Shown here one piece after another: positions 15,724 to 50,591 of a stretch of 64,000 nucleotides of DNA. The DNA is taken from contig JBAZUP010000001.1 of assembly GCA_041661385.1 (NCBI GenBank), positions 7,382 to 71,381 on the forward strand, written 5' to 3'. The DNA comes from Patescibacteria group bacterium (GTDB lineage: Bacteria > Patescibacteriota > Patescibacteriia > Magasanikbacterales > GWA2-37-8). Numbering within the stretch: position 1 is the first letter of the stretch; every line of letters begins with the position of its first letter. A program made the translations under genes and the position numbers. The notes beneath the pieces were generated by a model. It saw only the letters and a program-made list of their open reading frames with translations, had not been told where the DNA came from and ran no database searches.

Positions 15724-15749
15724 AAAACAATCCAATTTGGATTGTTTTG

Positions 15750-15823
15750 TGCGCGCTGGGGGATTCGAACCCTCGACCCCCTCGGTGTAAACGAGGTGCT
15801 CTAACCAACTGAGCTAAGCGCGC
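15750..15823 (-). tRNA. tRNA-Val (anticodon TAC)
   Basis: Reverse complement folds as a cloverleaf. Acceptor stem GCGCGCT/AGCGCGC. Anticodon stem CCTCG/CGAGG with loop TTTACAC. TTCGAAT T-loop. No encoded CCA. Confidence 0.85.
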
Positions 15824-15893: not shown

Positions 15894-17072
15894 ATGCGTT
15901 CAGAAAAACAAGTATTTTTACATCGCGGCATTTATAAACCTTCTGCTACACTTTCAGAGGCGGTGTTTATGATTACCGGCATGACCATTGGTGCGGGAGT
16001 TCTCGCCATTCCTTATGCTGTAGCACAGGTCGGACTTCTCACCGGCATTGCTTATATTGCCGCTCTTGGTTTAATTATAATGTTTTTAAATTTAATGATC
16101 GGGGAGATCGCCAGCCGCACAAAAGAGCCGATGCAACTGGCTGGTTTTGCCGGAAAATATCTTGGGAGTTGGGCAAAATATTTTCTTTCTTTTATTTTCT
16201 TATTTAGCGCTTTTGGAACTTTGCTCGTTTATGTTATCGGTGAAGGAACTTCGCTCGCTGCAGTTTTTGGCGGTTCACCCACGCTTTGGAGTGTGGTTTT
16301 TTGGTCAGTCGGTAGTTTTCTTATCTGGGGTGGTTTAAAGCGAATTAAAAGCATTGATAAATTATTCGGTATCATAATTATGGGAATAATTACCGGATTA
16401 TCACTTTATCTTTTACCGCGTTTTAATTTTGCGGAATTATCATATTTTGACGGCTCACAGATATTTTTTCCGCTAGGTGTAATTCTTTTCGCTCTTCATG
16501 CCTCACCGGCAATTTCCGAAGCCCATGCTCTTTTGCCGAATCGAGCTCGTGATTTTCGTCGAGCTTTAATTCTTGGAACTATCATACCAATTCTATTGTA
16601 TATTATCTTTACGATTGCGGTGGTTGGTTTTACTGGAGCCGAAACGTCCGAAATAGCGACCATTGGGCTTGGCGTGGCTCTAGGGCCGTTTATTGGGGTT
16701 ATGGCGAATGTTTTTGCTGTCTTAGCCATGAGCACGGGTTTTATTGGCCTTGGCACAGCTTTGCGTGAGACATTATCATGGGATTTAAAGGTGCCAGATA
16801 AAGGATCGCTTTTTTTGGTTGTTTCAGTACCTTTAATTCTATTTCTATTTGGAATTCGTAGTTTTATTTCGGTTTTGGATGTTGTTGGTACAGTTGGTAT
16901 TGCTTTTGAAGGTATTATTATGGGGTGGGTATATCTGCGGGCGCGCAAGGGCTCAGATGCATTGCCGGAAAGTTACTTATCTCCGCGTCATCCATTACTT
17001 ATTTCTTTTCCGGTTATCGCGTTCTTCGGTTCACTGCTTCTCTTTAGTTTCTATCGTTTTTTTGTAAAATAA
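15894..17072 (+). CDS. amino acid permease (APC/HAAAP superfamily)
   Basis: 392 aa, ~11 TM segments. N-terminal GMTIGAGVLAIPYA motif typical of amino-acid transporter families. Confidence 0.65.
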   Translation: MRSEKQVFLHRGIYKPSATLSEAVFMITGMTIGAGVLAIPYAVAQVGLLTGIAYIAALGLIIMFLNLMIGEIASRTKEPMQLAGFAGKYLGSWAKYFLSFIFLFSAFGTLLVYVIGEGTSLAAVFGGSPTLWSVVFWSVGSFLIWGGLKRIKSIDKLFGIIIMGIITGLSLYLLPRFNFAELSYFDGSQIFFPLGVILFALHASPAISEAHALLPNRARDFRRALILGTIIPILLYIIFTIAVVGFTGAETSEIATIGLGVALGPFIGVMANVFAVLAMSTGFIGLGTALRETLSWDLKVPDKGSLFLVVSVPLILFLFGIRSFISVLDVVGTVGIAFEGIIMGWVYLRARKGSDALPESYLSPRHPLLISFPVIAFFGSLLLFSFYRFFVK

Positions 17073-17090
17073 AAAAATATATTTAATAAC

Positions 17091-17717
17091 AATAGCGCGG
17101 CCTCAGCCGCGCTTTTTTTGTTTTTATTTTATAATAAATATCGCCTTGTCGGGCGGATGTTCGCTACCCCATTTGTGCAAACAAACGGGGTAGCACCCCA
17201 AAATTGCCGAGCTAGCTGTTCGGCTCCGCAACTCACATCAGCTCAACGAGCTGTGGCGCAGAACTCGTCGCTTGACACTCCTCAAACAGCTGCACCACCC
17301 ACGCTCGTTTTCACTGTGTCGAGTTGTGTCACCTCACATGCGCTCGGAACCGAACGTTGGCTAATTACCAACTGGTGACCGAGCCTATACGTAGTGAGTT
17401 GCAAACTACCCGAGGAAATTAGATTTTTTCAATGTGATTATGCTGATTTGAAAAAATCTAATTTCGCCGGCCATTTATTCTCGTTCCACAAAGGCTCGGA
17501 GGTGAATTGTTGGTAATTGGCCAACAACGGGGGTTTGGGGAAGTCGATATCCCGAGTTCTCGCGAACGAGTGGTTATATCGACGATCTCCCCAAAACCTT
17601 TGGTTACTTTCAGTTATGAAAGTAACATTGAGAATAATTTAAGAGAAAATAGAGTAAACATCGCGATAGCGATAAGATGTATTTAAATATAAATAGCGAG
17701 GCTGAGGCCGCGCTATT
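17091..17717 (+). repeat. intergenic modular repeat, copy A (~627 bp, flanked by 22-bp terminal inverted repeats)
   Basis: Left end aatagcgcggcctcagccgcgc, right end gcgaggctgaggccgcgctatt (reverse complement, 1 mismatch). Shares modules M1-M4 with copies B and C. Confidence 0.6.
17095..17119 (+). terminator. terminator hairpin gcgcgg-cctcag-ccgcgc + T7; also the left terminal inverted repeat of repeat copy A
   Basis: Perfect 6-bp GC stem followed by TTTTTTT directly after the permease stop. Confidence 0.6.
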
Positions 17718-17738
17718 ATAATAATTAATTAAATTTGT

Positions 17739-19505
17739 TTATGGTGTGACGATTGCTCCGTTCTTAAATCCTTTATCTGTATTCGGAAGAATGTTTGAAG
17801 TATTATTCAGTTTAATATTAAATTCTTTACCAACCTCATCATCAATTCCGTAATAGGTTGTTGCCGAAATTAAGTTTAAAATATATCCGGCCTGTTCAGC
17901 TTTGGGGGTCACAGACACTTCAAAATAGAATCCGCTTTCACTGTCCGCAGGTACAGCGCTGTCATAAGTCCAGCTCATAGTTCGGTTTGCCTGGTTAAAA
18001 ATCAATTCAGGCCCGATTGTTACGCTTTGTTTCCCGGTAAAGGTGACTCCGGGAGCTAGGGTAAAAATTAAGCGATTGCCACGCAGGGAATTTATTTTGT
18101 CAAAAAGGGTAGTGAATATCCAATATTTGGTTGTTTTGCCAACCTGTGGGGGTAGAAGTCCGCGGCCTAACTGGTCACCTTCATCGGTATAATATCTCGC
18201 CACACTGCGTAGAAATACTTCGGCGGAAAGGGAAATGCTCGTTGCGGATCCGTCGGTTGTAAAAGCTTGCCCCGGCATATCGGCTGCTTCGGCTTCAAAT
18301 ACAGGTTTGATTGTTAGGGTCTTTATTCCGGATGCTTTTTTGTCGAAGTTTGGAAGCAAATATATTTTTATATCAAATTGATCGCCCGAATTTGGTTTGC
18401 CATCGGACAGGGTTGTGCGAGTTTTTTCATTAATTATCAGGTTGTTGCCATCTTTGGTTAGGTGGTTTTCGGTGGCAGTAAGAGCGAGGTCGACTACGCC
18501 AGGTGTGGTTTGGATAATAATCTTTTGGTTTTTTAATGAAAACTGGCTATCATTTTTCCACATTATTCTCACTGGTAAAATTGAAAGCGGTTCCGCATAG
18601 GGTGGAGCTTCTTGCAGTCTGGTCGAAAGAGTAATTCGCGGACTAAACAATTCTAGCCGGTTTTTTTGAGTGCTTTGAATAAAAGTTTTTCCATTAATAA
18701 TCACTCTGGTGTCTGCAGTAAATAGATAATTTCCTCCTTTGGTCGGAGTAAAGAATGTTTCTGAGTAGGAAGTGGTGGCATTTGGAGGTAGTTCAAATAC
18801 CTTATCTATCATTTTTCCGTTAATGTTTAATCGGATATCAGACAGGGTAATATTTCCGGTATTTATTAAATCTACTGAATAGGGTATTTTTTGATTAGAA
18901 AAAGTTTTTGATGGTGAGTTGAGGGTCGCGTGCAAAACGCTGTCTGTAAGAGTGAGTAAATAAATACCAGAAGATTGATCAATATTTGTATTTCCTTCGG
19001 GCTTAAATGAAAGAGTTGCAATTAATTTTTCTGTTTCATTAATATTAGACCAAAGCGTTCCATAGATATCGGCAGAACCGTGGCTTCCGGGCGGAAGGGA
19101 GCCGATTGTAATGGTGTGGTTTTTGAGATCAAGATTAGAAGTGAGTTTTTCGTCAACAATAAACCCCTGAGGTAATCGCAAGGCAAGAATCGCGTTATTA
19201 AGATTTTGTTTGCTGTTGTTTGTATAGTCGATAGAAAGATGTACCGGACTGCCGCTTTTTATTCGTTCTGATCCAAGTGATATAGAAATAGCTACTTCAC
19301 TTCCAATACTGGGTTTCCATGTGAAAAAGAAAGCGCTGCTGCCGAACATTAAAATGGCAAATCCAAGTAGAAACATGTCAAACACAAATAGTTGTTTGGC
19401 GTGTTCATAAACACCGTGATACTTGCGGTGGTAATGGTTATGAAAGAAATTGTAGATAGCTTTAATCATTTGATTGATATTATACCTTACTCCTCGTGCA
19501 AACAA
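17739..19505 (-). CDS. membrane-anchored large extracellular protein (hypothetical, beta-rich)
   Basis: N-terminal TM (LLGFAILMFGSSAFFFTW) then ~520 aa of S/T/N-rich domain. Same operon as the HTH gene. Confidence 0.5.
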   Translation of the reverse strand: MFARGVRYNINQMIKAIYNFFHNHYHRKYHGVYEHAKQLFVFDMFLLGFAILMFGSSAFFFTWKPSIGSEVAISISLGSERIKSGSPVHLSIDYTNNSKQNLNNAILALRLPQGFIVDEKLTSNLDLKNHTITIGSLPPGSHGSADIYGTLWSNINETEKLIATLSFKPEGNTNIDQSSGIYLLTLTDSVLHATLNSPSKTFSNQKIPYSVDLINTGNITLSDIRLNINGKMIDKVFELPPNATTSYSETFFTPTKGGNYLFTADTRVIINGKTFIQSTQKNRLELFSPRITLSTRLQEAPPYAEPLSILPVRIMWKNDSQFSLKNQKIIIQTTPGVVDLALTATENHLTKDGNNLIINEKTRTTLSDGKPNSGDQFDIKIYLLPNFDKKASGIKTLTIKPVFEAEAADMPGQAFTTDGSATSISLSAEVFLRSVARYYTDEGDQLGRGLLPPQVGKTTKYWIFTTLFDKINSLRGNRLIFTLAPGVTFTGKQSVTIGPELIFNQANRTMSWTYDSAVPADSESGFYFEVSVTPKAEQAGYILNLISATTYYGIDDEVGKEFNIKLNNTSNILPNTDKGFKNGAIVTP

Positions 19506-19514
19506 AAACTCCCC

Positions 19515-19895
19515 TTATTGAAGTGGGGGAGTTGGTTTGTTGTTTAAAACTGGGGGAACAGCCGGTTTGTTTGTTTCACCGGTTTCAGTCGGTAATTTTG
19601 GTTTTATAGACTTTGGGTTGGGGGAGTAGAGTGGGTTCTTTATTTTCCACTTATCCACATATTGTCCAATACCTTTTTTAAGCAATTTGTTTTTTACGGT
19701 GGTATGTCGTTGTGACCATTTAACTAAGCTTTCAAAATTAAGTTTATATCGTCCGGAAACTACCACATAAGTTACTTCCTGAGATCGTATTGCACGACGG
19801 ATTGTTTGCGAATTAACACCAAAAAGCCGGGCTGCCTCGGATATAGATACCCGAATTAGCTCTTTCTGCTCTTTGTTATTTATGTCTTCGGCCAT
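19515..19895 (-). CDS. helix-turn-helix DNA-binding protein (excisionase/MerR-like HTH) with Pro-rich tail
   Basis: HTH segment ISEAARLFGVNSQTIRRAI. Start taken at the ATG at 19895 (MAEDINN); the track's start at 19940 would overlap the operator. Confidence 0.55.
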   Translation of the reverse strand: MAEDINNKEQKELIRVSISEAARLFGVNSQTIRRAIRSQEVTYVVVSGRYKLNFESLVKWSQRHTTVKNKLLKKGIGQYVDKWKIKNPLYSPNPKSIKPKLPTETGETNKPAVPPVLNNKPTPPLQ

Positions 19896-19901
19896 AGTAT
19901 T

Positions 19902-19930
19902 TGTACACGGTTGTATACGATAGTGTATAC
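19902..19930. promoter_or_regulatory. operator-like palindrome array: tgtacacggttgtatacgatagtgtataca
   Basis: Three TGTAYACR half-site palindromes directly upstream of the HTH gene start. Confidence 0.45.
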
Positions 19931-19988
19931 ATCCTAGCATAAAATCGATTATTTGTCAAGGGGTAAGGCATTAAAAATATTTTATGTT

Positions 19989-20008
19989 TGTATACAATAT
20001 TGTATACA
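19989..20008. promoter_or_regulatory. operator-like site tgtatacaatattgtataca
   Basis: Two TGTATACA palindromes 4 bp apart. Confidence 0.45.
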
Positions 20009-20069
20009 AACTTTAATACAAAATGGCTAAAATAAGCGATTCACATTTGAAAAAATATGGCATTTTTTT

Positions 20070-20089
20070 TGTATACAATAGCGTATACA
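20070..20089. promoter_or_regulatory. operator-like site tgtatacaatagcgtataca
   Basis: Near-identical copy of the 19989 site. Confidence 0.45.
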
Positions 20090-20097
20090 AATATCAA

Positions 20098-20470
20098 ATA
20101 TGCGCGGCCTCAGCCGCGCTATTTTTTTATATCGCCCTGTCGGGCGGATGTTCGCTACCCCATTTGTGCAAACAAACGGGGTAGCACCCCAAAATTGCCT
20201 CGCAGTTGTTTCACTCGACAAATGTCACGTCGAAATCAAAACGATTTTTTCAAAGGTGCATAGTCGCATTGAAAAAATCTAATTTCGCCGGCCATTTGCT
20301 CTCGTTCCACAAAGGCTCGGGGGGACATTTGTTGGCCAACCAGTGGGGGTTTGGGGGCCGCCAGCTGTTTGAGGAGCTCGCGCGACGAGTTCTGCCGGCC
20401 CCCAGAACCTTTTGATTACTTTTCAGTTATGAAAAGTGATGCCGCCGGCAGGGCTAAGGAAATAAGTATT
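20098..20470 (+). repeat. intergenic modular repeat, copy B
   Basis: Starts with the same gcgcggcctcagccgcgc hairpin + T-run. ~95% identity to copy A over module M1. Shares M2-M4 with compensatory stem differences. Confidence 0.6.
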
Positions 20471-20665
20471 ATAGAGAAATGATTGAATTGATTGAGCCTG
20501 CCCGCAATGCTACGCATAGCGTTGCAGGCGGGCGACAGCGAGAAAGGGTTCCTCGACTACGCTCGGAATGACATTTTGTCCAGTTTAATTGTCAGAGATG
20601 CATATATATGAGCGAATATGCAAAAATCCGCTAAAATACGCCATTTCCCCAAAATATCCCAATGT

Positions 20666-20694
20666 TTGACTATTCACCCATATTTTGATACTAT
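20666..20694 (+). promoter_or_regulatory. sigma70-like promoter (TTGACT-17 nt-TACTAT) upstream of the ECF sigma gene
   Basis: TTGACT at 20666-20671, TACTAT at 20689-20694. Confidence 0.4.
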
Positions 20695-20795
20695 ATGCCT
20701 TAATTATGTCAGCATTCGGAACCGTTATATATAATAGATAAAGGGAGGTTAAAGTGGCCTAGTGTAACACTTTTATTTTTTTTGCGTCTACTATA

Positions 20796-21350
20796 ATGTC
20801 AGGTAAATTCTCAGAGAAAATTCTACTGTACCGATTGAAGACGAAGAACGATCCAGAGAGCTACGCGAAACTCTACGACACATACGTGGAACAGATTTAT
20901 CGTTTCGTATATTTTAAAGTGTCCGGTAGAGAAGAAGCAGAAGACATCACCTCGGATGTTTTTTTAAAAGCTTGGCACTATGTACAAGAGGGGCGCGATA
21001 TCAAAAATTTTAAAGCTTTGCTTTATAAAATTGCCCGCAACTGCGTCATAGATTTATATCGAAAAAAATCCTCAAAACCAGAAAGTTATTTAGAAGATCA
21101 GTTGGCAAAAGGTTTTGAAGCTGGCGATCGTGGCGCCTGGTTAAAAAAAGAAACTACCGCGATTGATTCCGAACAAATTTTAAAAGCGTTAAAAAAATTA
21201 AAACAAGAATATCAGGAAGTGATTACGCTCCGGTATGTGGATGAACTTGAAGTAAGTGAGATAGCCGAAATAGTTGGTAAGGGGCCGGTGGCCGTGCGGG
21301 TCACGATTCATCGGGCGATTACAAAACTTAAAACATTTTTGGAAGAATAA
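20796..21350 (+). CDS. RNA polymerase sigma factor, ECF (sigma-70 family group 4)
   Basis: Region 2 (IYRFVYFKVSG...DITSDVFLKAWH) and region 4 HTH (ITLRYVDELEVSEIAEIVG...AVRVTIHRAITKLK). 184 aa. Confidence 0.85.
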   Translation: MSGKFSEKILLYRLKTKNDPESYAKLYDTYVEQIYRFVYFKVSGREEAEDITSDVFLKAWHYVQEGRDIKNFKALLYKIARNCVIDLYRKKSSKPESYLEDQLAKGFEAGDRGAWLKKETTAIDSEQILKALKKLKQEYQEVITLRYVDELEVSEIAEIVGKGPVAVRVTIHRAITKLKTFLEE

Positions 21351-21356
21351 ACACTT

Positions 21357-22724
21357 ATGAGTCGCGAACTCAAGCGACAACTGAATTCAATGAAGCATGA
21401 GGCTGTAAAGCCAAATGCTGAATGGGTGGCTAAAAACCGCTCGCTTTTGCTTTCTCAAATAAAAAATACTATTCCTCAAAAAGTAAAGGTATCTTTTAAT
21501 ACTCGTTTTGAAGCGGTACTTGCCATCCTTATGCCAGAATCTTTGGTATCCGGCACAGTACGTTTTGTAGCTATCTCACTCATTGTGGTTATGGTTGCTC
21601 CTTCTTTGTATTACGGTACAGTCATGGCTTCGCAAGAATCTTTGCCAGGTGAAAATCTTTATGGCGCCAAACGTTATGCAGAAAAAATTCAGGTTACAGT
21701 AGTTGGTCTTATCGGTAACACCTCAGATGAAACCAAATTGCATGTTGAGCTCGCCAAAAAACGCGCCGATGAAACTAGTAAAATTATTAATGATCCTTCA
21801 AAAATGTCCAATGTTGCTAATACCGTTGCGGACTTACGAAGTGAAATGAATACGATTAGTGATAAATTAGACCAGAGTAAAAATTCCGGCACCATGTCAG
21901 CAGGGGACGCTCAAAATATCAAACAAAACACCGATCAAATTAAGGAAGTTTTACAGGTTGCCAAAAATGATTTAATGGCTGTTTCCGCTGGAAATGATCG
22001 TACTTTAAATGAAGTAAAACAAACCAAAGATTTAGTTCAAGATGTTTCAATGCAGGCCGTAGAAGTTATGGTTACCAAACACCTTGAAGGTGATACCTCA
22101 GTTTCTAAAGCAGAAGTAAAAGCTGCTATTGATTCCACTGTTCAAACCTCAGTTGGTGAAGTTGCTCAATCCAGAGAAAATATTGCCGGCATGCAGACGA
22201 TTTTACAAACTGCCAAATCTGATGTTGGCGGTTTGGTAAATGATTTTAAAGGTTCCGCCATGTCCAGCACCACTCAAGAAATAACAAATAAAATTGCCGT
22301 CGTTTATGACAAAGCCAACCAAGCCGTGCAAGTTACCGATACGATTAGCGAGGAAGCTGGTCGAAAGGCGGTAGAGGTTAAGGCTTTACTTGGTTCCGAT
22401 AATTTAGCTGGAGCAGTAGATCGAATGAAAGAATTGTCACAGGCCTCAAAAGATATTGAAACCATTTCTGATAAAACTATTGAACAAACTCAACCGCTCA
22501 TTCCTATTGTGCAGGTTGTAAAAGATGTTGTCGCAAGTGGCACCACTTCTAGTATCGATATTGTTTCGAGTTCAGTAAAATTATTAACAATTGATGCAAT
22601 TATTTCGACTGGTACCATTAATACCACCAGTCTCACTACTTTACCGCTACCGAAATATCCGACCAGTACTATTAGTACTACACCGAAAGTTCAGTCCAGC
22701 ACGCCGCCAATTAGTACACATTAA
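21357..22724 (+). CDS. putative membrane-bound anti-sigma factor / extracytoplasmic sensor
   Basis: 6 bp downstream of the ECF sigma gene. Single TM (FVAISLIVVMVAPSLYY). Long extracytoplasmic, probably coiled-coil region, and a T/S/P-rich tail. Confidence 0.45.
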   Translation: MSRELKRQLNSMKHEAVKPNAEWVAKNRSLLLSQIKNTIPQKVKVSFNTRFEAVLAILMPESLVSGTVRFVAISLIVVMVAPSLYYGTVMASQESLPGENLYGAKRYAEKIQVTVVGLIGNTSDETKLHVELAKKRADETSKIINDPSKMSNVANTVADLRSEMNTISDKLDQSKNSGTMSAGDAQNIKQNTDQIKEVLQVAKNDLMAVSAGNDRTLNEVKQTKDLVQDVSMQAVEVMVTKHLEGDTSVSKAEVKAAIDSTVQTSVGEVAQSRENIAGMQTILQTAKSDVGGLVNDFKGSAMSSTTQEITNKIAVVYDKANQAVQVTDTISEEAGRKAVEVKALLGSDNLAGAVDRMKELSQASKDIETISDKTIEQTQPLIPIVQVVKDVVASGTTSSIDIVSSSVKLLTIDAIISTGTINTTSLTTLPLPKYPTSTISTTPKVQSSTPPISTH

Positions 22725-22954
22725 TTTATTTATTCAGGTATCCTCTCCCTCCCTGCAACAAAAAGATTTGTTACAGAGAGGGGAGGGAATACGTTATAAA
22801 CCCGAATCAGTTATAAATGTCGAGAGGTGAATAGTCACCTTGGCTGGTTCATTAGTAGTGGATATCGAAGGTCGCAAGGTTTTCGAGTCCGCTCCGCCCT
22901 AAATCGCGATTCCGTCCGGAAAAGCGGTTTGGAGTGATAATATTTATATTTATT

Positions 22955-25900
22955 ATGCAGAATGTATTAAAATTAGGCCGTAAAGTCCTAACCGTTAGTA
23001 CCGTCTTCAGTACCATTTTGTGGTCTGTAGGTGTCTCAGCTTTGGTACCAGCAATGGCCCAAGCCGAAACCTGCCCAACTTTCAAGTCGGGTGACCTCAT
23101 TAAAGTAACTGGCCGACCAGCCATTTACGCTGTTGATTCTAACGGCAAAGTTCTTTATTTCCCAAGTGGAGATGAATTCAAGAGTTGGAATTCCAATGAT
23201 TCCTACGGTGGTTATACCGCCATTTCACAAGCATGTTACGACGCGCTTCCAGTGCCAAGTATGGCCCCAATGGGTGTCAACTTCCGCCCTGGTTCATATG
23301 TTGTCAAGCGCATTTCCTCAGATCAATTATATGTAATAGAACCAAACAACACTTTGGCCAAAGTTACCTCTGAGGTAGCCAAAGCATTGTATGGAACTAC
23401 CTACAAAGCAAGAACAGTAGCCGATGTATTCTGGAACAGTTACACCAACCGTGCAGCTGATCTTACAGAAGCAAAAGCTCACCCAGGCATGCTCATCAGC
23501 AATGGTGGCAAAACCTATTTTGTGAACACCGACGGCTCACTTTCACAAGTTTCAGCCACTGGTTTCACAGCCAACCGCTTCAAACAAGCCTTCGTTCGCC
23601 CGGTCGCCAGCATCGCTGGTTTCACCATGGGTGCCGAAATTGCTGCTGAAGACGGAAAGACTTCTGACCGAACTCAAACTGGCGGCGTAGTTGCAACCAT
23701 TCCTGGTGGCACCGTTTCCGGCGGTTCTGTTTCAGTTGGTCTCGCAATCGATAACCCAGCAGCCGGTTTATTGGCTTCTGGTACCGCTTTCAATAAAGTA
23801 TTGAAAGTTACTTTGACTGCCGGTTCCGCTGATGTTGCTGTTACTGGTTTAACCCTCAAGAAGAGCGGTTTTGCTGCTAACTCAGCTATCAACGGCGCTG
23901 ATGTTGTAGATGCTTCTGGAGTTCGCCACGGCAACGTGTCCGGATCCATTGACACCGACAACAACCTCACCCTATTGTTCTCTGGCTCTCCAATTGTTGT
24001 AAAAGCCAATTCCAGCCAGACTGTAACAGTTCGCGTGAATATTGCCGCATCTGGTACCACCGGTACCATGCAGTTCAGCTTAGCTGGTTCAGGTTCTGTC
24101 ACCACCAACGGTGGTTCAGTATCCGGCAGCTTCCCTGTCACTGGTAACGTTTTCACCTTACAAGATGGTTCAAACGCTATTGCCGCAGTAGCATTGAATG
24201 AACAACCAGTTAACGCCTCTGGCGCTACCTTGAACGTTGATTCAAACAATGAACAAGAAATTGCGAAGTTCTCAATCAATGAAACATCCAGCCGTGAAAA
24301 TGTTCAATTAAGCAGCCTTACCCTTTACAACAATGGTACTTCTGCTGACACTGACATCCAAGATGTTCAATTGGTTGGACAAGACGGCACCGTTCTTGCC
24401 ACAGCTCAACAGCTCAACAAGACCGTTGTCTTCAGCCTCGTCCCTGCTTATAACATCGACAAAGGCGTCACCAAGAACTTTACCGTTCGCGCTAAAATCG
24501 TAAATGGTGCAGCTCGTACCATTCAATTCGTAGTTTACAATGACTATGATGCGATTTTGGTCGGTGGTAACACTGGTGCAAACATCTTACCAACAACCAC
24601 CTCTGGTGGAACTGCTGGTACAGGTACAACTTTCCCAGTAGGTAACAAGACCAGTTATAACCTTGTAACTATTGGTTCAGGTTCTATCAGCTTTAACAAG
24701 GACACCTCTTCACCTTCATCCGCTATTTCCCCAGGAACTAACGGTGTTGTAATCGCGAAATTCTTCGCGAAGCCAACTGGTGAAAACATGGAACTCCGCC
24801 AAATTTCCTTGAACATCGTCACTTCGACCCCGTCATTATTGACTGGTTCAGTAGTTGTCAAGGTTAATGGCGCTTCCGTATGGAGTGGTTCGCCAGCATT
24901 ATTTGCCGGTGCCGCATTAACAGAAACCCTTTCTTCCTATCCTGTCTTGACTGCTGGTCAGAACAGCTACATTACGGTTGAAAGCAATGTTATGAGTGGT
25001 GCTGCTAGTGGCGAAACAGTTTACGCCGCTATGGACCTCGTCCAAGTTAAACGCTTAGTAACCAACGACATTGTTGACCCAGGCACAAACAGCTCACAAG
25101 GCAACACCTTGGCTGTGCAAGCTGCCGCACTGAAGGTAACCACCATGGCTACCCCAGTTGCGCAGAGTGTAGTTGCCGGTTCAGCCGGTGTAGTACTTGC
25201 CAACATTGAATTAAATGCTGGTACAGTATCTTCTGGTGAAGACGTCCGAGTTTCCAAAATTGTCATTTCTGACGTTTGGTCAGGAACTTTGACTGATATT
25301 GGAAACCTCGCATTGTATGATGCTAATGGTAATCAGATTGTGACTACCGCAAGCACCGCTACTAATGCCGCTTCATCTTCGTTCAACCTTGCCAACCCAA
25401 TCACTGTGCCAAAAGCCGGTGCTGTTACTCTCACTCTAAAAGGTGATGTATTAACTGGTACCACTTCAACCCACAAATTCTCCGTTGCTAGCATTGCGGA
25501 CGTTACTGCTACTGGCATTTCAACTGGTAACTCTTTGAGTTCAACCATTACGGGTGGCGTTGGTTCTGGTCAGTTATTGTCCGTTACTGGCTCTGGCACA
25601 TTGTCATTGTCCACAGTTTCTGGTGGTTCAGCCTCACCTTCGAACGACCAAACAGTCCTCGTTGGTCAGACTGCCGTTCCAGTATTCGCAGTTAAATTAA
25701 CTGCACAAAATGAACCAATTAAGATCACCAGCTTCAAGATTACCGCTACTGGTACTATTGGTACATCTAACGACATTGTGAACTTGAAACTTTATCGTGA
25801 CAACGATACAGCTCCGTTCGCATCTGCTGGTCAAATGAACTACGTCAGTGCAAACAACTACACATACACTTGGACTGCTACCGATAACCTGCTCCCAGCA

Positions 25901-26623
25901 GCGGTACAACCAGGCACCCCAGTAACCATCTACGTCAAAGCTGACGTAGGTGCACAGGGAAATGTAGTTATCGGTGACAGCTTCCGCTTCGCATTCGCCA
26001 CCAACACCGACATCGGTGCCAAGGGCGCTTCCAGCGGTCAGACTTTGGTCAATGCTTCTATAGTTGGTACTCCAGCTGTAACTGCATTCACTTCCATTGT
26101 TCCGTTCAGCGTTTCACTCGCTGCACAGGCTCCAACTGGCAACCAGACTCAATCAATTGTGGCTGGCACTCAGTTAGCAATTGTTAAAATCACCAACAAT
26201 GGTGGTTCAAAGATTACTGTTACCGGTGTTAAATTCACTGATAATGGTACTCACTCTGGTTCAACCACAACTTACAAGTTGTATTACTCAGATTTGAACT
26301 CTGTTAATTTCGTTGGTAACACAGCTTCTAGTACTTGGACTAGCGTAGATTTCTCGAATCTTACTGCTTCAAGCACAGGCACCGGTCCCTTCACCATTGA
26401 TGGTGGAGCCTACCGCTACGTCACTGTTGCTATCAATACACTTGGTTCCGCTGTTTCTGGAGATAACTTCCAATTGTCAATTGCATCACTTGGTGATGTG
26501 AAATACTCAGTTGTTGGTTCAGATCTCGGTTATAGCGTAGATGCCAGTGGTAATTTGGCAACTGTTGCAACCGGTCTCAAAGCTGATGGAAAACCATCCT
26601 TAGCCACTCTTTCCAAGCAATAA
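22955..26623 (+). CDS. giant secreted surface protein (S-layer/adhesin-like, T/S/G/V-rich beta repeats)
   Basis: Sec signal peptide MQNVLKLGRKVLTVSTVFSTILWSVGVSALVPAMA|QA. ~1220 aa rich in Thr/Ser/Gly/Val/Ala with repeated Ig-like segments. First ATG at 22955; the track's GTG is at 22934. Confidence 0.6.
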   Translation: MQNVLKLGRKVLTVSTVFSTILWSVGVSALVPAMAQAETCPTFKSGDLIKVTGRPAIYAVDSNGKVLYFPSGDEFKSWNSNDSYGGYTAISQACYDALPVPSMAPMGVNFRPGSYVVKRISSDQLYVIEPNNTLAKVTSEVAKALYGTTYKARTVADVFWNSYTNRAADLTEAKAHPGMLISNGGKTYFVNTDGSLSQVSATGFTANRFKQAFVRPVASIAGFTMGAEIAAEDGKTSDRTQTGGVVATIPGGTVSGGSVSVGLAIDNPAAGLLASGTAFNKVLKVTLTAGSADVAVTGLTLKKSGFAANSAINGADVVDASGVRHGNVSGSIDTDNNLTLLFSGSPIVVKANSSQTVTVRVNIAASGTTGTMQFSLAGSGSVTTNGGSVSGSFPVTGNVFTLQDGSNAIAAVALNEQPVNASGATLNVDSNNEQEIAKFSINETSSRENVQLSSLTLYNNGTSADTDIQDVQLVGQDGTVLATAQQLNKTVVFSLVPAYNIDKGVTKNFTVRAKIVNGAARTIQFVVYNDYDAILVGGNTGANILPTTTSGGTAGTGTTFPVGNKTSYNLVTIGSGSISFNKDTSSPSSAISPGTNGVVIAKFFAKPTGENMELRQISLNIVTSTPSLLTGSVVVKVNGASVWSGSPALFAGAALTETLSSYPVLTAGQNSYITVESNVMSGAASGETVYAAMDLVQVKRLVTNDIVDPGTNSSQGNTLAVQAAALKVTTMATPVAQSVVAGSAGVVLANIELNAGTVSSGEDVRVSKIVISDVWSGTLTDIGNLALYDANGNQIVTTASTATNAASSSFNLANPITVPKAGAVTLTLKGDVLTGTTSTHKFSVASIADVTATGISTGNSLSSTITGGVGSGQLLSVTGSGTLSLSTVSGGSASPSNDQTVLVGQTAVPVFAVKLTAQNEPIKITSFKITATGTIGTSNDIVNLKLYRDNDTAPFASAGQMNYVSANNYTYTWTATDNLLPAAVQPGTPVTIYVKADVGAQGNVVIGDSFRFAFATNTDIGAKGASSGQTLVNASIVGTPAVTAFTSIVPFSVSLAAQAPTGNQTQSIVAGTQLAIVKITNNGGSKITVTGVKFTDNGTHSGSTTTYKLYYSDLNSVNFVGNTASSTWTSVDFSNLTASSTGTGPFTIDGGAYRYVTVAINTLGSAVSGDNFQLSIASLGDVKYSVVGSDLGYSVDASGNLATVATGLKADGKPSLATLSKQ

Positions 26624-26676
26624 TCCGCTTGAGTTAGAAACTAAGCACAGTTTCTCGATAGCTCACAATCGTCAAA

Positions 26677-26708
26677 ACCACCTGCCTTCGGGCAGGTGGT
26701 TTTTGTTT
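26677..26708 (+). terminator. rho-independent terminator after the surface-protein gene
   Basis: accacctgcc-ttcg-ggcaggtggt followed by TTTTGTTT. Confidence 0.75.
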
Positions 26709-26734
26709 CCTTGGTTTTATTTTAAAACGTTTTT

Positions 26735-27190
26735 CCACCCATTTTGTGCGCCCAAAACGGGTGGATCCCAAAAGGCGCCGAGCTGATACTTAGCTCGGCA
26801 AATGCCTCGGCGAAATCAAAACGATTTTTTCAAAAGTGCAAGGTCGCATTGAAAAAATCTAATTTCGTCGGGCAGTTTGCGGCTCGCTTCATATAGGCTC
26901 GGTCACGAATTGTTACCAATTGGCGAGTCCGAGTCTTTTGTGAAGCGATGCCACTTGTCTGGGCGAGGTGAACGTGGGTGGCGCAGTTGTTTGAGCCCAC
27001 AGGCGAGTTCTGCGCCACAGTGAGACGAGCCCTAGAAAGTGGCGAAGTGGAACAACCGACTCGGAGCCTTTTTGGTTTCTTTTTGGGCGAACAAAAAGAA
27101 ACCGCTCGCCGCGCAGGCGTGGCAGCCAGTCCGGCGAGGACTGTTGTTTGAGTAACAGCCAGATTGGTGACTATCTTTGACAAAGACCCG
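26735..27190 (+). repeat. intergenic modular repeat, copy C
   Basis: Shares the loop-ttgtgc hairpin, module M2 (gattttttcaa...ttgaaaaaatc palindrome, ~90% identical to copy B) and a cagaactcg/ctcaaacagctg segment in inverted orientation. Confidence 0.55.
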
Positions 27191-27252
27191 TTATTTAACT
27201 ATAATAAGCGAAGCTTCAACCCCTTAATGAAGTCCCTTTTTTATAATTTATT

Positions 27253-29316
27253 ATGTCAAAAAAGCACATCGAAACGATAATAAAATGGTTAATTTTCGCC
27301 ACCTTTTTTGTCCCGCTCGTCGTCGCGCCGAGTTCATTTATCTTTCCTTTCATTGTTCCTAAAATTCTTCTTTTCCGTTCGCTTACTACCCTTATTATTG
27401 CGCTATACGCCATTCTTTTATATATCAACCCCGCTCAATATCGCCCCCGCGCTTCTTGGTTAAATTGGGCAGTACTCGGTTTTCTAGTTAGTTTTACCCT
27501 TTCTACTTTTTTTGGTTCTGATCCGTATCACAGTTTTTGGGATAACCACGAACGCATGCTTGGTCTTTTTACCATTATTCATTATATTGCTTATTTTTTT
27601 ATATGCGCCCAGGTATTTCGTACCTGGGAGGATTGGAAATTGGCATTGCAAATCTTTTTAGTTGCCGGATCTTGTGTAATGTTTGTCGGATTGCTCCAAG
27701 TATTTAATCCAAATTTTCTTCTTAATGGCGGAAGTGGGCGTGTTATAGCGACAGTTGGCAATGCTATTTATGTCGGTGGTTATGGTTTATTTTTGTTTGC
27801 GGTTGCTAGTTTGTTATTTTTGAAAGAAAAAAATATTTGGTTAAAAGTAATATACGTTTTACTTGCGATTTTGGCGCTCATCGGCATTATTTTCAGCGGC
27901 ACCCGTGGTTCTTTACTTGGTTTAATATTTGGTATTGGCCTTGCGATGATAAGTTATGCTTTTACTTTAAAAGGAAAATCAAAAGTAAAAAATTATTTAT
28001 TAGGAGCTATAATTTTGGGCGTAGCGGTTTTGGGGCTCGCTTATGTAAATCGCCAGTCCAAATTTGTTACCGATATTCCGGCGCTTTCTCGCGTTCTAAA
28101 TACTTCTGTAAAAGAATTACAAGAGGGTGCCCGTGTCATTGCTTGGGGGGCGGCGTTTCAGGGCTGGAAAGACCGACCGATTCTCGGTTGGGGTCCAAAT
28201 AACTTTTTCTATGCATTTAATGCCCATTATGACGCTCGTTCGCTAGAATACGGCTATGGTGAAACCTGGTTCGATAATGCCCACAACATTTTGGTAAATA
28301 CGCTTGCAGTACAAGGGGTAGTTGGCATTATTACTTATCTTGCTATTTTTGCCGCCGCAATTTATATGTTAGTTTCGGCTTACCGAGGTGGTCGGGTCGA
28401 TCGGCACATTGCAGTTATTGGCGCAGCTTATCTCATGGCCCATTTACTTGAAAATGTTACAGTATTTGAAAATCCGACTTCATATTTATATTTTGTATTC
28501 TGGCTCGCCATGATCAACAGTTTGTCTAAAGTTGTTTTTGTAATTAGTGCGGAAAAAAATAAAGTAGTTTTAGATCAAAAAGCCGGTAACGGAATATTGC
28601 TTGGAGCCGGGCTTACCGCGGCGTTATTTATTTTTGTTCTCAATATTCAACCTGCCCGCGCGAATATGAAAACTTTGGACGCGCTTCAAATGATTAATGG
28701 AGATGTGACTCAATCTGTACCGCTTATTGAATCTGCGCTTGATTTTAATTCGCCTCACATTGATGATATCAGAAGTGATATTAGTAGAACACTCGTTGGT
28801 TCGCTTGGTGACACTAGCAGCAAGCTCGATGTTAGTTTAAAAAAACAGCTTTATAATATAGTTGAATCTTCAATGCTTGCGAATATTGAATTACACCCCT
28901 ACGACATTCGCAATCACTTAACTCTTGCGCAACTTTATCAAACTTTTGCGATTCAAAATAATGACGCGAGCGAAATGATAAAAGCCGAAAAATATTTGAC
29001 GGACACGATGGCTCTTTCACCTCGTCGCCAGCAGGTTATATATAATCTAGCAATTGTAAAACTTCAACTCGGTAAGGTGGCAGAAGCTGAAACATTATTT
29101 AAGCAAACTATTACCGATGATCCAAAGATCGCCGAAGGATATTTCCGCCTTGCTTATATGTTTGCGGCAATCGGCCAACCCGAAAAGGCTCTCGCGGTAA
29201 TAAAACAAGCCAGCGACAATAATGTTACCCTTGGCGAAGATCAATTAAATGCTATTAATCAAGTAATCATACAGGCTGCCAAAGCTGCCGGAGCGTCAAC
29301 TAAAACTAAGAAATAA
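27253..29316 (+). CDS. Wzy_C / O-antigen-ligase-family membrane protein with C-terminal TPR domain (candidate O-oligosaccharyltransferase or polymerase)
   Basis: ~10 TM N-terminal domain with a Wzy_C-like loop (FSGTRGSLLGLIFGIGLAM). C-terminal soluble region of TPR-like repeats (LAQLYQTF..., YNLAIVKLQLGKVAEAE, YFRLAYMFAAIGQPEKA). Confidence 0.7.
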   Translation: MSKKHIETIIKWLIFATFFVPLVVAPSSFIFPFIVPKILLFRSLTTLIIALYAILLYINPAQYRPRASWLNWAVLGFLVSFTLSTFFGSDPYHSFWDNHERMLGLFTIIHYIAYFFICAQVFRTWEDWKLALQIFLVAGSCVMFVGLLQVFNPNFLLNGGSGRVIATVGNAIYVGGYGLFLFAVASLLFLKEKNIWLKVIYVLLAILALIGIIFSGTRGSLLGLIFGIGLAMISYAFTLKGKSKVKNYLLGAIILGVAVLGLAYVNRQSKFVTDIPALSRVLNTSVKELQEGARVIAWGAAFQGWKDRPILGWGPNNFFYAFNAHYDARSLEYGYGETWFDNAHNILVNTLAVQGVVGIITYLAIFAAAIYMLVSAYRGGRVDRHIAVIGAAYLMAHLLENVTVFENPTSYLYFVFWLAMINSLSKVVFVISAEKNKVVLDQKAGNGILLGAGLTAALFIFVLNIQPARANMKTLDALQMINGDVTQSVPLIESALDFNSPHIDDIRSDISRTLVGSLGDTSSKLDVSLKKQLYNIVESSMLANIELHPYDIRNHLTLAQLYQTFAIQNNDASEMIKAEKYLTDTMALSPRRQQVIYNLAIVKLQLGKVAEAETLFKQTITDDPKIAEGYFRLAYMFAAIGQPEKALAVIKQASDNNVTLGEDQLNAINQVIIQAAKAAGASTKTKK

Positions 29317-29321
29317 TCAAT

Positions 29322-29396
29322 TATATGGGTTTTGCCCATATAAGCTCACTCGCTCGAAAATGAAATAAATTTTCATTTTACTCACTTATTTCGCAT
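29322..29396 (+). promoter_or_regulatory. conserved inter-operon element, copy 1 (palindrome atatggg-ttttg-cccatat + conserved leader)
   Basis: ~80% identical to 50513-50591. Both sit between a stop codon and the first gene of a nucleotide-sugar operon. Confidence 0.4.
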
Positions 29397-49801: not shown

Positions 49802-50517
49802 AAGCGATGATTTTGGCTGCGGGCGAGGGGGTCCGACTTCGCCCCCTTACAAACAATATTCCTAAAGTAATGGTCAAAATTGATGGTAAACCTCTTTTGG
49901 AACACAATGTGAATTTAGTCCGTAGTTATGGGGTGCGGGAGATAATTACCAATGTTCATTACAAGCCAGAAATTATAAGTAATTATTTTCAAGACGGAGA
50001 CAAGTTTGGCGTATCTATTTTCTATTCTAAAGAAAAAGAACTCCTGGGCAGTGCCGGCGGAATAAAAAAGGTTGCCAACAAATTAAATAAAACGTTTTTT
50101 GTTTTGTATGGTGACAACTTAAGCAACTGCAACCTAAAAGATCTTCTCACAACTCACAAGAAGAATAAAACTATTTGTACCCTAGTAATTTTTGATAAGA
50201 TTAAGAATAAAAACACTGGTAAAGGTGGAGGTAGAATTTTGTTAAATAAGGATAAAACAGTTAGACAATTTATTGAGAATGGAGAAGAAATCAGTAATTT
50301 TTGCAATGCGGGAATCTATGTGCTTGAACCGGAAATATTTAAGTATATTCCTAATGGAAAAAAATTTGATTTTGGTAATGATGTTTTCCCTTTGCTTCTG
50401 AAGCGCAATATTAAAATAGGTACCTACAAATTAGGTAAAAAAGGGTATCTTTATGCGTGTGATACTATGAAGTACTACCGACAAACACAAGATTTTTTTA
50501 AACATAATGTATTATAG
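49798..50517 (+). CDS. sugar-1-phosphate nucleotidyl(guanylyl)transferase
   Basis: MILAAGEGVRLRPLTNNIPKVMV NTP-transferase motif. Paralog of 55356-56078. Confidence 0.8.
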   Translation: MKAMILAAGEGVRLRPLTNNIPKVMVKIDGKPLLEHNVNLVRSYGVREIITNVHYKPEIISNYFQDGDKFGVSIFYSKEKELLGSAGGIKKVANKLNKTFFVLYGDNLSNCNLKDLLTTHKKNKTICTLVIFDKIKNKNTGKGGGRILLNKDKTVRQFIENGEEISNFCNAGIYVLEPEIFKYIPNGKKFDFGNDVFPLLLKRNIKIGTYKLGKKGYLYACDTMKYYRQTQDFFKHNVL

Positions 50518-50591
50518 GGGCTTTGCCCATATAAACTCATTCGTTTGAAAATATTTCAGCAAGCTAAATATTTTACTCACTCATTTCGTTT
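50513..50591 (+). promoter_or_regulatory. conserved inter-operon element, copy 2
   Basis: tataggggctttgcccatata palindrome + ttttactcactcatttcgtttATG leader, matching 29322-29396. Confidence 0.4.

Follow-up and report, generated by a model that had tools for sequence, protein, structure and literature searches.

Dispersed hairpin-rich repeats of Candidatus Magasanikbacteria, a probable family of non-coding palindromic mosaic mobile elements

We analysed a stretch of 64,000 nucleotides from a Patescibacteria group bacterium (hereafter the window), three intergenic regions of which carry genuine copies of a non-coding, hairpin-rich repeat family of about 400-600 bases. Copy A (17091-17717) lies between the 3' ends of two convergent genes (15894-17072 on the plus strand, 17739-19505 on the minus strand). 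Copy B (20098-20543, plus strand) is found between a divergent HTH gene (promoter 19931-19959, minus strand) and an ECF sigma factor gene (promoter 20666-20694), and adjoins operator palindromes upstream of the latter. Copy C (26735-27163, plus strand) separates the terminator of a gene encoding 1229 aa (26674-26705) from the Wzy_C promoter (27177-27205). All three are positioned between terminators and promoters or, in the case of B, between divergent promoters, in gaps transcribed by no identified promoter, and no promoter was found inside the element. The extent given for A in the preliminary description stood, whereas B reaches past 20470 to 20543, where it ends with gcgacagcgaga, and C stops at about 27163 and not at 27190. 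Pairwise BLAST comparisons among the three copies gave E-values of 1e-25 to 1e-34, and their G+C content is 51-54%, against 39.5% for the whole window.

The full unit spans about 375-510 nt with roughly 50% G+C in a genome of 40% G+C; individual copies measure 374-512 nt and the composite copy A 627 nt. It opens with the end repeat TTCTCGCTATCGCTCAAA; two small hairpins come next, then the central hairpin, which is long and imperfect, a right arm and an inverted end repeat, the family pair of end repeats being TTCTCGCTATCGCTCAAA / TTTGAGCGATAGCGAGAA; a hairpin of the element has the form AGCGCGGC-N4-GCCGCGCT. The right arm is of one of two alternative types, each built of more hairpins. The tip of the central hairpin is an invariant AT-rich palindrome, GATTTTTTCAA-N15-TTGAAAAAATC, present without strand assignment in all three copies (A 17422-17458, B 20243-20279, C 26823-26859): three matches in the window compared to none in 100 shuffles. 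Hairpin gcgcggcctcagccgcgc occurs at 17095-17112 in A and 20102-20119 in B, with an inverted copy bearing one mismatch at 17696-17713 (3 matches for 0.02 expected), and a second hairpin at 17164-17193, 20155-20184 and 26735-26764. All the hairpins, palindromes and inverted segments initially quoted were indeed found in place, far beyond chance. Of the four modules described as shared by the copies, all are present in A and B, but C lacks the first M1 hairpin and M4. Identity in M3 reaches 95% between A and B and falls to 60% in C.

Copy B starts with the terminal hairpin gcgcggcctcagccgcgc and its T-run (20102-20128), at a place where no gene ends. In its central long hairpin (20185-20320), pairing between the left arm and M3 encloses the core; there follow the M4 and hp5 hairpins (20345-20441), namely M4 of type B (20345-20413) and hp5 (20414-20441). 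The 3' end repeat gcgacagcgaga (20532-20543; family consensus GCGATAGCGAGA) is interrupted by an inserted hairpin of 34 nt (20498-20531), an indel that is missing in the orthologous copy of the close relative L083. All these features are on the plus strand. Copy C carries a different and longer right arm (26860-27163, plus strand), composed of M3 type 2 (26860-26902), a foldback bounded by ccgag/ctcgg (26928-27064), a hairpin (27074-27103), another, small one (27127-27143) and a degenerate version of the end repeat, tttgagtaacagccaga (27147-27163).

Copy A is chimeric, with two right arms that meet at the palindrome. Its block 17138-17208 (plus strand), formed by a small hairpin, the H2 hairpin and caccccaaaattgcc, is 99% identical over 71 nt to 20129-20199 of B, while the remainder of the two copies is only 73-79% identical. 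The long arm that follows (17209-17421, minus strand) corresponds, in reverse complement, to the C-type right arm, with M3 type 2 at 17379-17421; accordingly, 17198-17476 aligns with 27075-26800 of C at 68.6% identity over 287 nt. On the other side of the palindrome, a type-1 right arm (17459-17674, plus strand) comprises M3 type 1 (17459-17499), a linker, the M4 and hp5 hairpins (17529-17626; M4 of type A at 17529-17601, hp5 at 17602-17626) and a tail, whose end repeat gcgatagcgata (17663-17674) is degenerate. As reported, B and C carry in inverted orientation the segment cagaactcg...caaacagctg, which is forward in A (17259-17292). The copies had all been placed on the plus strand. Loop orientation and the profile score (91.6 bits on the minus strand, 54.8 on the plus strand) instead make A a minus-strand copy.

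Such exchanges extend beyond copy A. From one copy to another, the hairpin units act as exchangeable cassettes, being swapped, inverted, nested or missing. Two right arms are present in A and none in L063, L084 has no core, and some copies contain a nested element of 69 nt, the insertion being flanked by TTAT. An inversion of the 9-kb A-C segment by recombination between A and C was considered and rejected because gene order and orientation are the same as in the syntenic relative L060.

The three sites were compared with those of related genomes. The element is absent from all of them in L060, where the gaps measure 41 nt at site A (666 nt in the window), 449 nt at site B (855 nt) and 285 nt at site C (629 nt). 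Site A is also empty in L063 (20 nt) and L084 (45 nt). Four related genomes carry the element at site B, with differing versions in L083, L084 and L063, that of L063 being a short reversed copy; this occupancy could reflect an old, retained and perhaps useful insertion instead of repeated mobility. The element is DNA gained, lost and rearranged between related genomes, and its variable presence among related Candidatus Magasanikbacteria is the behaviour of mobile DNA and not that of a fixed RNA gene.

In total, 12 independent copies were collected, the three of the window and nine others. Seven came from a metagenome scan (L043, L045, L047, L050, L051, L052 and L053); the remaining two are the copy at site B of L063 and a diverged copy at a different site, L066, present in two NCBI MAGs. 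The hosts of these additional copies are metagenome contigs and related Candidatus Magasanikbacteria (CPR) genomes. The 12 copies lie in non-syntenic contexts, with unrelated or differently arranged surroundings: the contigs of the other copies show no similarity to the window beyond the element borders, the adjoining genes are unrelated housekeeping genes, and no neighbour recurs. Every copy is intergenic, at the boundaries of units. L052 also adjoins a sigma factor gene, a paralogue; with only 32% identity, this neighbour was rejected as a site-B orthologue. Short-read contigs of the same organism break within copy B, at window positions 20358 and 20508.

The ends of the element were best defined in the fullest copy, L053, in which perfect terminal inverted repeats (18/18 nt) close the predicted fold. 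Those of L047 are about 12-24 nt long and contain mismatches. In the window, the end repeat is found in B at the 3' end only and is degenerate in A and C, the 5' repeats being degenerate or missing. The terminal inverted repeats first noted in copy A were recovered, extending to 38 nt at 84% identity, and belong to a separate hairpin repeat of 22-38 nt. The left one (aatagcgcggcctcagccgcgc and T-run, 17091-17119, plus strand) is terminator-like for the permease gene, and the right one (17691-17717, minus strand), an inverted copy of the left, is terminator-like for the minus-strand gene; with GC stems and T-runs, they probably serve both convergent flanking genes as terminators. No direct repeat indicative of a target-site duplication adjoins the ends of the six copies examined (L053, L047, L050, L045, A and B), hence the element is not a textbook MITE. 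The 5' flanks cctatt, actctt, aatcta, tacatt and tcaacc have no tetranucleotide in common. No transposase adjoins the copies, and neither an autonomous partner nor a transposase was detected in the approximately 0.7 Mb of sequence inspected.

We searched for coding capacity and for known families. The short ORFs differ in frame between copies, as originally observed, and no ORF is conserved across them; with indels that are not multiples of three and longest open frames lacking start codons, a protein-coding reading was discarded. When the frame most often open was turned into a profile, only ORFs called inside copies L050 and L053 matched. A six-frame chimeric protein query gave no match, but is uninformative, as it also missed a 60-aa ORF on record. 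Rfam returned only tRNA-Val for the whole window at the gathering threshold, only sub-threshold terminator-like matches for 16900-27400 at E up to 5, and only tRNAs and rRNA for ten loci with other copies; the modules match no family at gathering or relaxed thresholds. No match was found among 72,556 plasmids or 50,697 phage records, and scans of viral contigs with a 19-mer, the palindrome and an end-repeat 17-mer gave chance matches only. Scanning genome contigs with the bare palindrome yielded 41 matches, all by chance and none homologous by BLAST; they come from unrelated phyla and are AT-rich palindromes resembling terminators. Group II intron, ribozyme, riboswitch, tracrRNA/omega-RNA-like and sso-origin readings were dropped for want of an Rfam match, an associated protein gene or a consistent position relative to genes. 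A literature search found no description of this repeat family, nor of interspersed repeats or MITEs in CPR/Patescibacteria. The family can therefore be regarded as uncharacterised, as had been proposed.

The stems of the element are maintained despite sequence divergence. In the central hairpin, 37 consensus pairs were aligned, of which 7 display compensatory (double) changes, and 96.2% of the cells are paired (double changes: 0/500 shuffles, 0-3 in slid controls). H2 occurs with six different stem sequences, all paired; the hp5 and M4 stems vary in sequence and keep their pairing, and the core stem of L066 shows two compensatory changes. Compared to shuffled sequences, folding reaches z values from -6 to -15. 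The strand preference across the element is incoherent. For the central hairpin the minus strand gives the better fold (E -31.3, versus -24.0 on the plus strand; 42 G-U), for the right arm the plus strand does (23 G-U cells versus 0 A-C cells). Over whole copies, the total number of G-U pairs is 105 versus 104 between strands. Whole-copy MFE favours plus in 5 copies and minus in 5, with 1 tie; these differences follow base composition, as shuffles differ likewise, and were not counted as evidence. The compensatory changes, which had been taken to argue for RNA structure, are real and statistically supported, yet with neither a coherent strand nor an internal promoter they do not single out RNA. 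Kept pairing is expected from selection on a folded molecule, and the interiors of ordinary MITEs do not show such changes, which weighs against a mobile-repeat reading.

Taken together, these data lead us to propose, with a probability of roughly 0.6, that A, B and C represent an undescribed family of non-coding, non-autonomous, palindromic mosaic mobile repeats, MITE/BIME-like, in Candidatus Magasanikbacteria (Patescibacteria/CPR). This interpretation is supported by the non-syntenic copies, the empty orthologous sites, the terminal inverted repeats of the fullest copies, the exchange of modules and the assembly breaks. The earlier suggestion of a mobile miniature element is borne out in these respects, though not by a target-site duplication. 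A structured-RNA function is less likely. According to that explanation, which we regard as improbable though worth weighing, the repeat would be a multi-copy gene for a large structured ncRNA of about 400 nt, its hairpins being selected helices and the palindrome a protein-binding stem-loop. The folding excess over shuffled sequences, the covariation of the central hairpin, the paired but variable H2, hp5 and M4 stems, the plus-strand bias of the right arm and a G+C content that exceeds the genome average, a feature of many structured RNAs in AT-rich genomes, all agree with it. It is contradicted by the opposite preferences of central hairpin and right arm, the lack of a conserved internal promoter and of any identified promoter transcribing the window copies, the differences in whole modules (L063, L084, A), the variable presence among close relatives and the lack of an Rfam family.

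A similarly small share of our confidence goes to hairpins that are directly selected because the element acts in single-stranded, folded form, either as a mobile element moving via a structured ssDNA or RNA intermediate, recognised by its palindrome and making no target duplication, or as a large structured CPR RNA that became multi-copy. We consider it unlikely that the host retains the copies as cis elements (terminators, insulators or mRNA-end stabilisers) whose hairpins would prevent read-through in a genome packed very densely with genes. At site A this would make sense, as the GC hairpins with T-runs face both convergent genes and the site has no other terminator, while the empty L060 site has its own; the location of all copies at unit boundaries and the occupancy of site B in four relatives would also fit. 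However, B lies between two divergent promoters with nothing needing termination, the terminator upstream of C is intact and conserved, T-runs are missing from most internal hairpins, and the invariant palindrome and the dispersal to unrelated loci would be left unexplained. Finally, we give very little credence to an origin by decay of a known insertion sequence, intron, prophage or plasmid: the inverted repeats and a G+C content deviating from the host are all that speaks for it, against the absence of plasmid and phage matches, the chance level of the viral-contig matches, the lack of any group I/II intron or ribozyme in Rfam and of an ORF remnant common to the copies, and protein homologues limited to ORFs called inside two copies themselves. 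No fragment of a known IS or intron was identified.

The family resembles several known repeat systems. Like MITEs (Correia of Neisseria, Nezha of cyanobacteria, RUP of pneumococcus), it is small (under about 600 bp, the composite A reaching 627 nt), non-coding, multi-copy (n=12), intergenic and able to fold back; its fullest copies have terminal inverted repeats, it shows insertion polymorphism among relatives (L060, L063, L084) and it breaks short-read assemblies. It differs from them by the lack of a flanking target-site duplication and of a known parent IS, by the degenerate ends of the window copies, and by an interior made of compensatorily kept hairpins around an invariant palindrome and not of neutral filler. 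With the REP/BIME (and REPINs) of enterobacteria and pseudomonads, it shares an extragenic mosaic of palindromic units in varying combination and orientation (here alternative arms, missing or inverted units and nested hairpins), often at gene 3' ends beside terminators and without target duplication. REP units, which associate with a RAYT (TnpA-REP) gene, are however 20-40 nt long compared to 30-150 nt here, unrelated in sequence, and present in hundreds of copies compared to about a dozen seen so far. The BOX repeats of Streptococcus pneumoniae are also modular (boxA-boxB-boxC-like), intergenic, variable in module number and strongly structured in prediction, but have no sequence similarity to the family and contain neither an invariant central palindrome nor 18-nt end repeats. 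PATEs, non-autonomous IS200/IS605 derivatives, have hairpins near both ends and no target-site duplication, and depend on folded single-stranded DNA, which would explain the maintained stems. In contrast to the present family, they lack terminal inverted repeats and insert beside a fixed sequence of 4-5 nt; here inverted repeats are present and the five 5' flanks share no tetranucleotide.

If A, B and C are mobile repeats, their movement would be catalysed in trans by a protein encoded outside the element, and the invariant palindrome, perhaps together with the end repeats, may serve as its recognition sites. Stem complementarity could be kept either by a need to fold as a single strand during movement or by gene conversion from arm to arm. 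The lack of target-site duplications and the position beside terminators or operator palindromes would be compatible with movement by another route than classic DDE cut-and-paste, one possibility being a mechanism that targets hairpins, such as HUH or IS110.

The maintained stems and the invariant palindrome make the family a tractable case for distinguishing selection on a folded intermediate from arm-to-arm gene conversion. A folded-single-strand element of either version would, if true, be of a kind not yet described in Patescibacteria. The family appears to provide the terminators of site A, fragments short-read assemblies and could be used as a strain marker. CPR/Patescibacteria genomes are small and gene-dense; in Magasanikbacteria at least, the family reveals a repeat in active rearrangement, by which intergenic regions are reshaped.

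In the three intergenic regions, all motifs quoted in the preliminary description of the three copies A, B and C were found and given exact coordinates. The 64 kb contain the core palindrome GATTTTTTCAA-N15-TTGAAAAAATC at exactly three positions (17422, 20243 and 26823), and none of 100 shuffles contains it. The GC hairpin gcgcggcctcagccgcgc was found at three places against 0.02 expected, in each case within 25 nt of an element end. BLAST searches of the window with each intergenic region matched A to B, B to C and A to C at E values of 1e-25 to 1e-34. The copies have a G+C content of 51-54%, whereas that of the window is 39.5%. The extents proposed at first needed revision: the end of B was moved to 20543 and that of C to about 27163. 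Likewise, the four modules described as common to the three copies do not all extend to C, which is devoid of the GC hairpin and of M4, a right-arm hairpin, and has a different, longer right arm. The long left part of A (17198-17476) is the reverse complement of this C right arm (27075-26800; 68.6% over 287 nt by BLAST).

Used alone, the palindrome gave only chance matches among species-representative genomes. When the palindrome was extended by four flanking bases, scanning of metagenomes yielded 12 loci, 7 of which are true homologues (L043, L045, L047, L050, L051, L052 and L053; 75-92% identity over 180-400 nt); these seven show no similarity to the window beyond the element borders. A profile search of 664 kb of fetched loci and the 64-kb window retained 12 independent copies and no others, with a score for copy A of 91.6 bits on the minus strand versus 54.8 on the plus strand. 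In their source records, homologues of the neighbouring ECF sigma factor are labelled Candidatus Magasanikbacteria or Patescibacteria. ENA ERZ27249449 and two Logan runs contain contigs of the same organism (99.98% identity); two of these contigs start within B, at window positions 20358 and 20508, as expected for an assembly-breaking repeat. The L050 copy was found 100% identical in ERZ27249449. Thus at least some of the copies found in metagenomes share the community, and possibly the genome, of the window.

Alignment of the copies defined a full unit of 374-512 nt. It is composed of an end repeat TTCTCGCTATCGCTCAAA, a small hairpin, the left-side hairpin H2, CCCCAAAATTGCC, a left arm and the core palindrome, followed by M3, a linker, the right arm, a tail and the end repeat again, inverted. 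The two end repeats of L053 match at 18 of 18 positions and close the predicted fold. Right arms are of two types. Type 1 carries the hairpins M4, with two alternative interiors, and hp5 (B, A on the plus strand, L043, L045, L047 and L050-L053), and the C type consists of a foldback with CCGAG/CTCGG at its borders, then another hairpin (C, A on the minus strand, and L066 and L084 from related genomes). In copy A the core joins a reversed type-1 arm to a C-type arm, the arrangement expected if two inverted elements had recombined at the palindrome. A 71-nt block is 99% identical between A and B, the remainder being 73-79% identical, and L050 has a 69-nt insertion within the hp5 loop with TTAT at its flanks; both findings suggest that parts of the element behave as cassettes.

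In four copies (window 20498-20531, L043, L047 and L050) the 3' end repeat is split, with GC duplicated, by a 34-nt GC-rich hairpin (ctgcccgcaatgctacgcatagcgttgcaggcgg). The hairpin is not found in L045, in L053 or in the copy that the close relative L083 carries at the orthologous site B; present in some copies and absent from others, it thus behaves as a tiny indel or as an independent mobile unit. Another, smaller family of repeats, about 75 nt long (TATAKGGGYTTTGCCCATATAARCTCA...GAAAATGAAA..TTTTCATTTTACTCACTYATTTCG), was observed at window 29320-29396 and 50511-50591, in L050 (about 1515-1583) and in L066 (962-1025). In L050 it lies inside the large element, nested in the loop of hp5 and flanked by TTAT; in the window and L066 it spans the entire gap from stop codon to next ATG, in polysaccharide and glycosyltransferase gene runs.

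The claimed compensatory stem differences are real, since the central hairpin, H2, hp5, M4 and the L066 core all stay paired. Over ten copies, RNAalifold gave a central hairpin of 37 pairs with 96.2% of cells paired; seven pairs changed on both sides, a number reached in none of 500 shuffles, and sliding the partner columns by 1-3 left 0-3 pairs with double changes. Six different stem sequences of H2 all keep their pairing, as do hp5 and M4, and the core stem, invariant elsewhere, carries two compensatory changes in L066 (AG...CT for GA...TC). Such stems favour a structured RNA, one of the two readings first proposed, but we consider it unlikely. The suggested Rfam search gave no match at any threshold, which fits an uncharacterised family, and no conserved promoter was found within the element. 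Copy A is located past the 3' ends of two convergent genes, copy B between divergent promoters (19931-19959, minus, and 20666-20694) that are both kept in relatives, and copy C between a conserved terminator and a promoter of perfect sequence (TTGACA-17-TATAAT) that is also present in relatives. Whole-copy MFE favours the plus strand in five copies and the minus strand in five, with a tie in one, and G-U totals are 105 versus 104 on the two strands. On the alignments, the central hairpin is better on minus (E -31.3 vs -24.0) and the right arm on plus (G-U 23, A-C 0). Moreover, copies without the right arm, or without the core, persist.

Protein-coding function was rejected: open frames vary among copies, in agreement with the initial remark that short ORFs are not conserved in frame, and they lack start codons. 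When the most frequent open frame was turned into a protein profile, it matched only the ORFs called within two element copies. Origin as a fragment of a known element, such as an IS or intron, was also rejected, as plasmid, phage and viral collections contained nothing similar. The genes around the copies have housekeeping functions, and neither a recurring family nor a transposase was found among them. A 1229-aa ORF (22934-26623) is present in all relatives (1218-1229 aa) and has no Pfam match. Elsewhere, direct repeats at 1308-2242 (GCTGATACCGAT..GATGG; spacing 66-69 nt), within ORFs 831-1616 and 1620-2783, encode Asp-rich repeats that resemble calcium-binding repeats.

Syntenic regions of relatives were retrieved with the sigma factor as anchor, and the gaps orthologous to those holding A, B and C (sites A, B and C; 666, 855 and 629 nt in the window, sigma identity 100%) were compared. 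Empty sites, which the preliminary description had suggested looking for, do exist. In L060 (sigma 75%), whose gene order is that of the window, site A (41 nt, with its own terminator), site B (449 nt) and site C (285 nt) are without the element, which is absent throughout 20 kb. Site A is also empty in L063 (sigma 78%; 20 nt) and L084 (sigma 79%; 45 nt), site C being outside the region covered in both. Site B of L063 holds a reversed copy of about 190 nt that stops directly after M3, and that of L084 a C-type long-arm unit and one hairpin only, without the core. The L083 contig (sigma 91%) begins at site B within the element 3' end, without B's 34-nt hairpin, and sites A and C fall outside it. 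L066 (sigma 72%, two NCBI MAGs) carries a diverged full copy elsewhere, upstream of the permease gene, where the window gap is only 170 nt. This comparison shows that, over the time that separates species of one lineage, the element is gained, lost and remodelled.

In the window, a tRNA (15749-15823, minus; tRNA-Val by ARAGORN) separates the glycosyl hydrolase gene from the permease gene, and it has counterparts in L066 (7215-7288, plus) and L063 (4410-4483, minus). Relative to the same flanking genes, the L066 tRNA is on the strand opposite to the window's and about 400 nt from the L066 element copy, so this region may have undergone a local inversion. At site B, operator-like perfect palindromes (TTTGTATACAATATTGTATACAAA / TTTGTATACAATAGCGTATACAAA; 19987-20010 and 20068-20091) lie between the HTH and ECF sigma genes and are kept in L060, L063 and L084; copy B and its relatives begin 10-50 nt past the last one. 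The best promoter of the HTH gene (TTGACA-17-TAGGAT, 19931-19959, minus, also in L060) overlaps the first ATG of ORF 19515-19940, so the true start is probably further downstream than the listed ATG; gene calls are 120-136 aa in relatives versus 141 aa in the window.

Taken as a whole, the data agree with a family of palindromic mosaic repeats that are non-autonomous. The MITE reading proposed initially holds for its mobile-like behaviour, which is closest to that of MITEs, but not for one of their defining features, target-site duplication, of which none was found in the six copies examined. In architecture it is closest to BIME/REP or BOX elements. The maintained stems, the AT-rich palindrome that forms the invariant tip of the main hairpin, and the insertion beside terminators or operator palindromes together suggest a mechanism that would involve either a trans-acting protein with a folded single-stranded intermediate or arm-to-arm correction. 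We consider it unlikely that the family represents a new RNA of the CPR or a mobile element that depends on structure. We conclude that this is a genuine, undescribed element that looks mobile and whose general kind is known.
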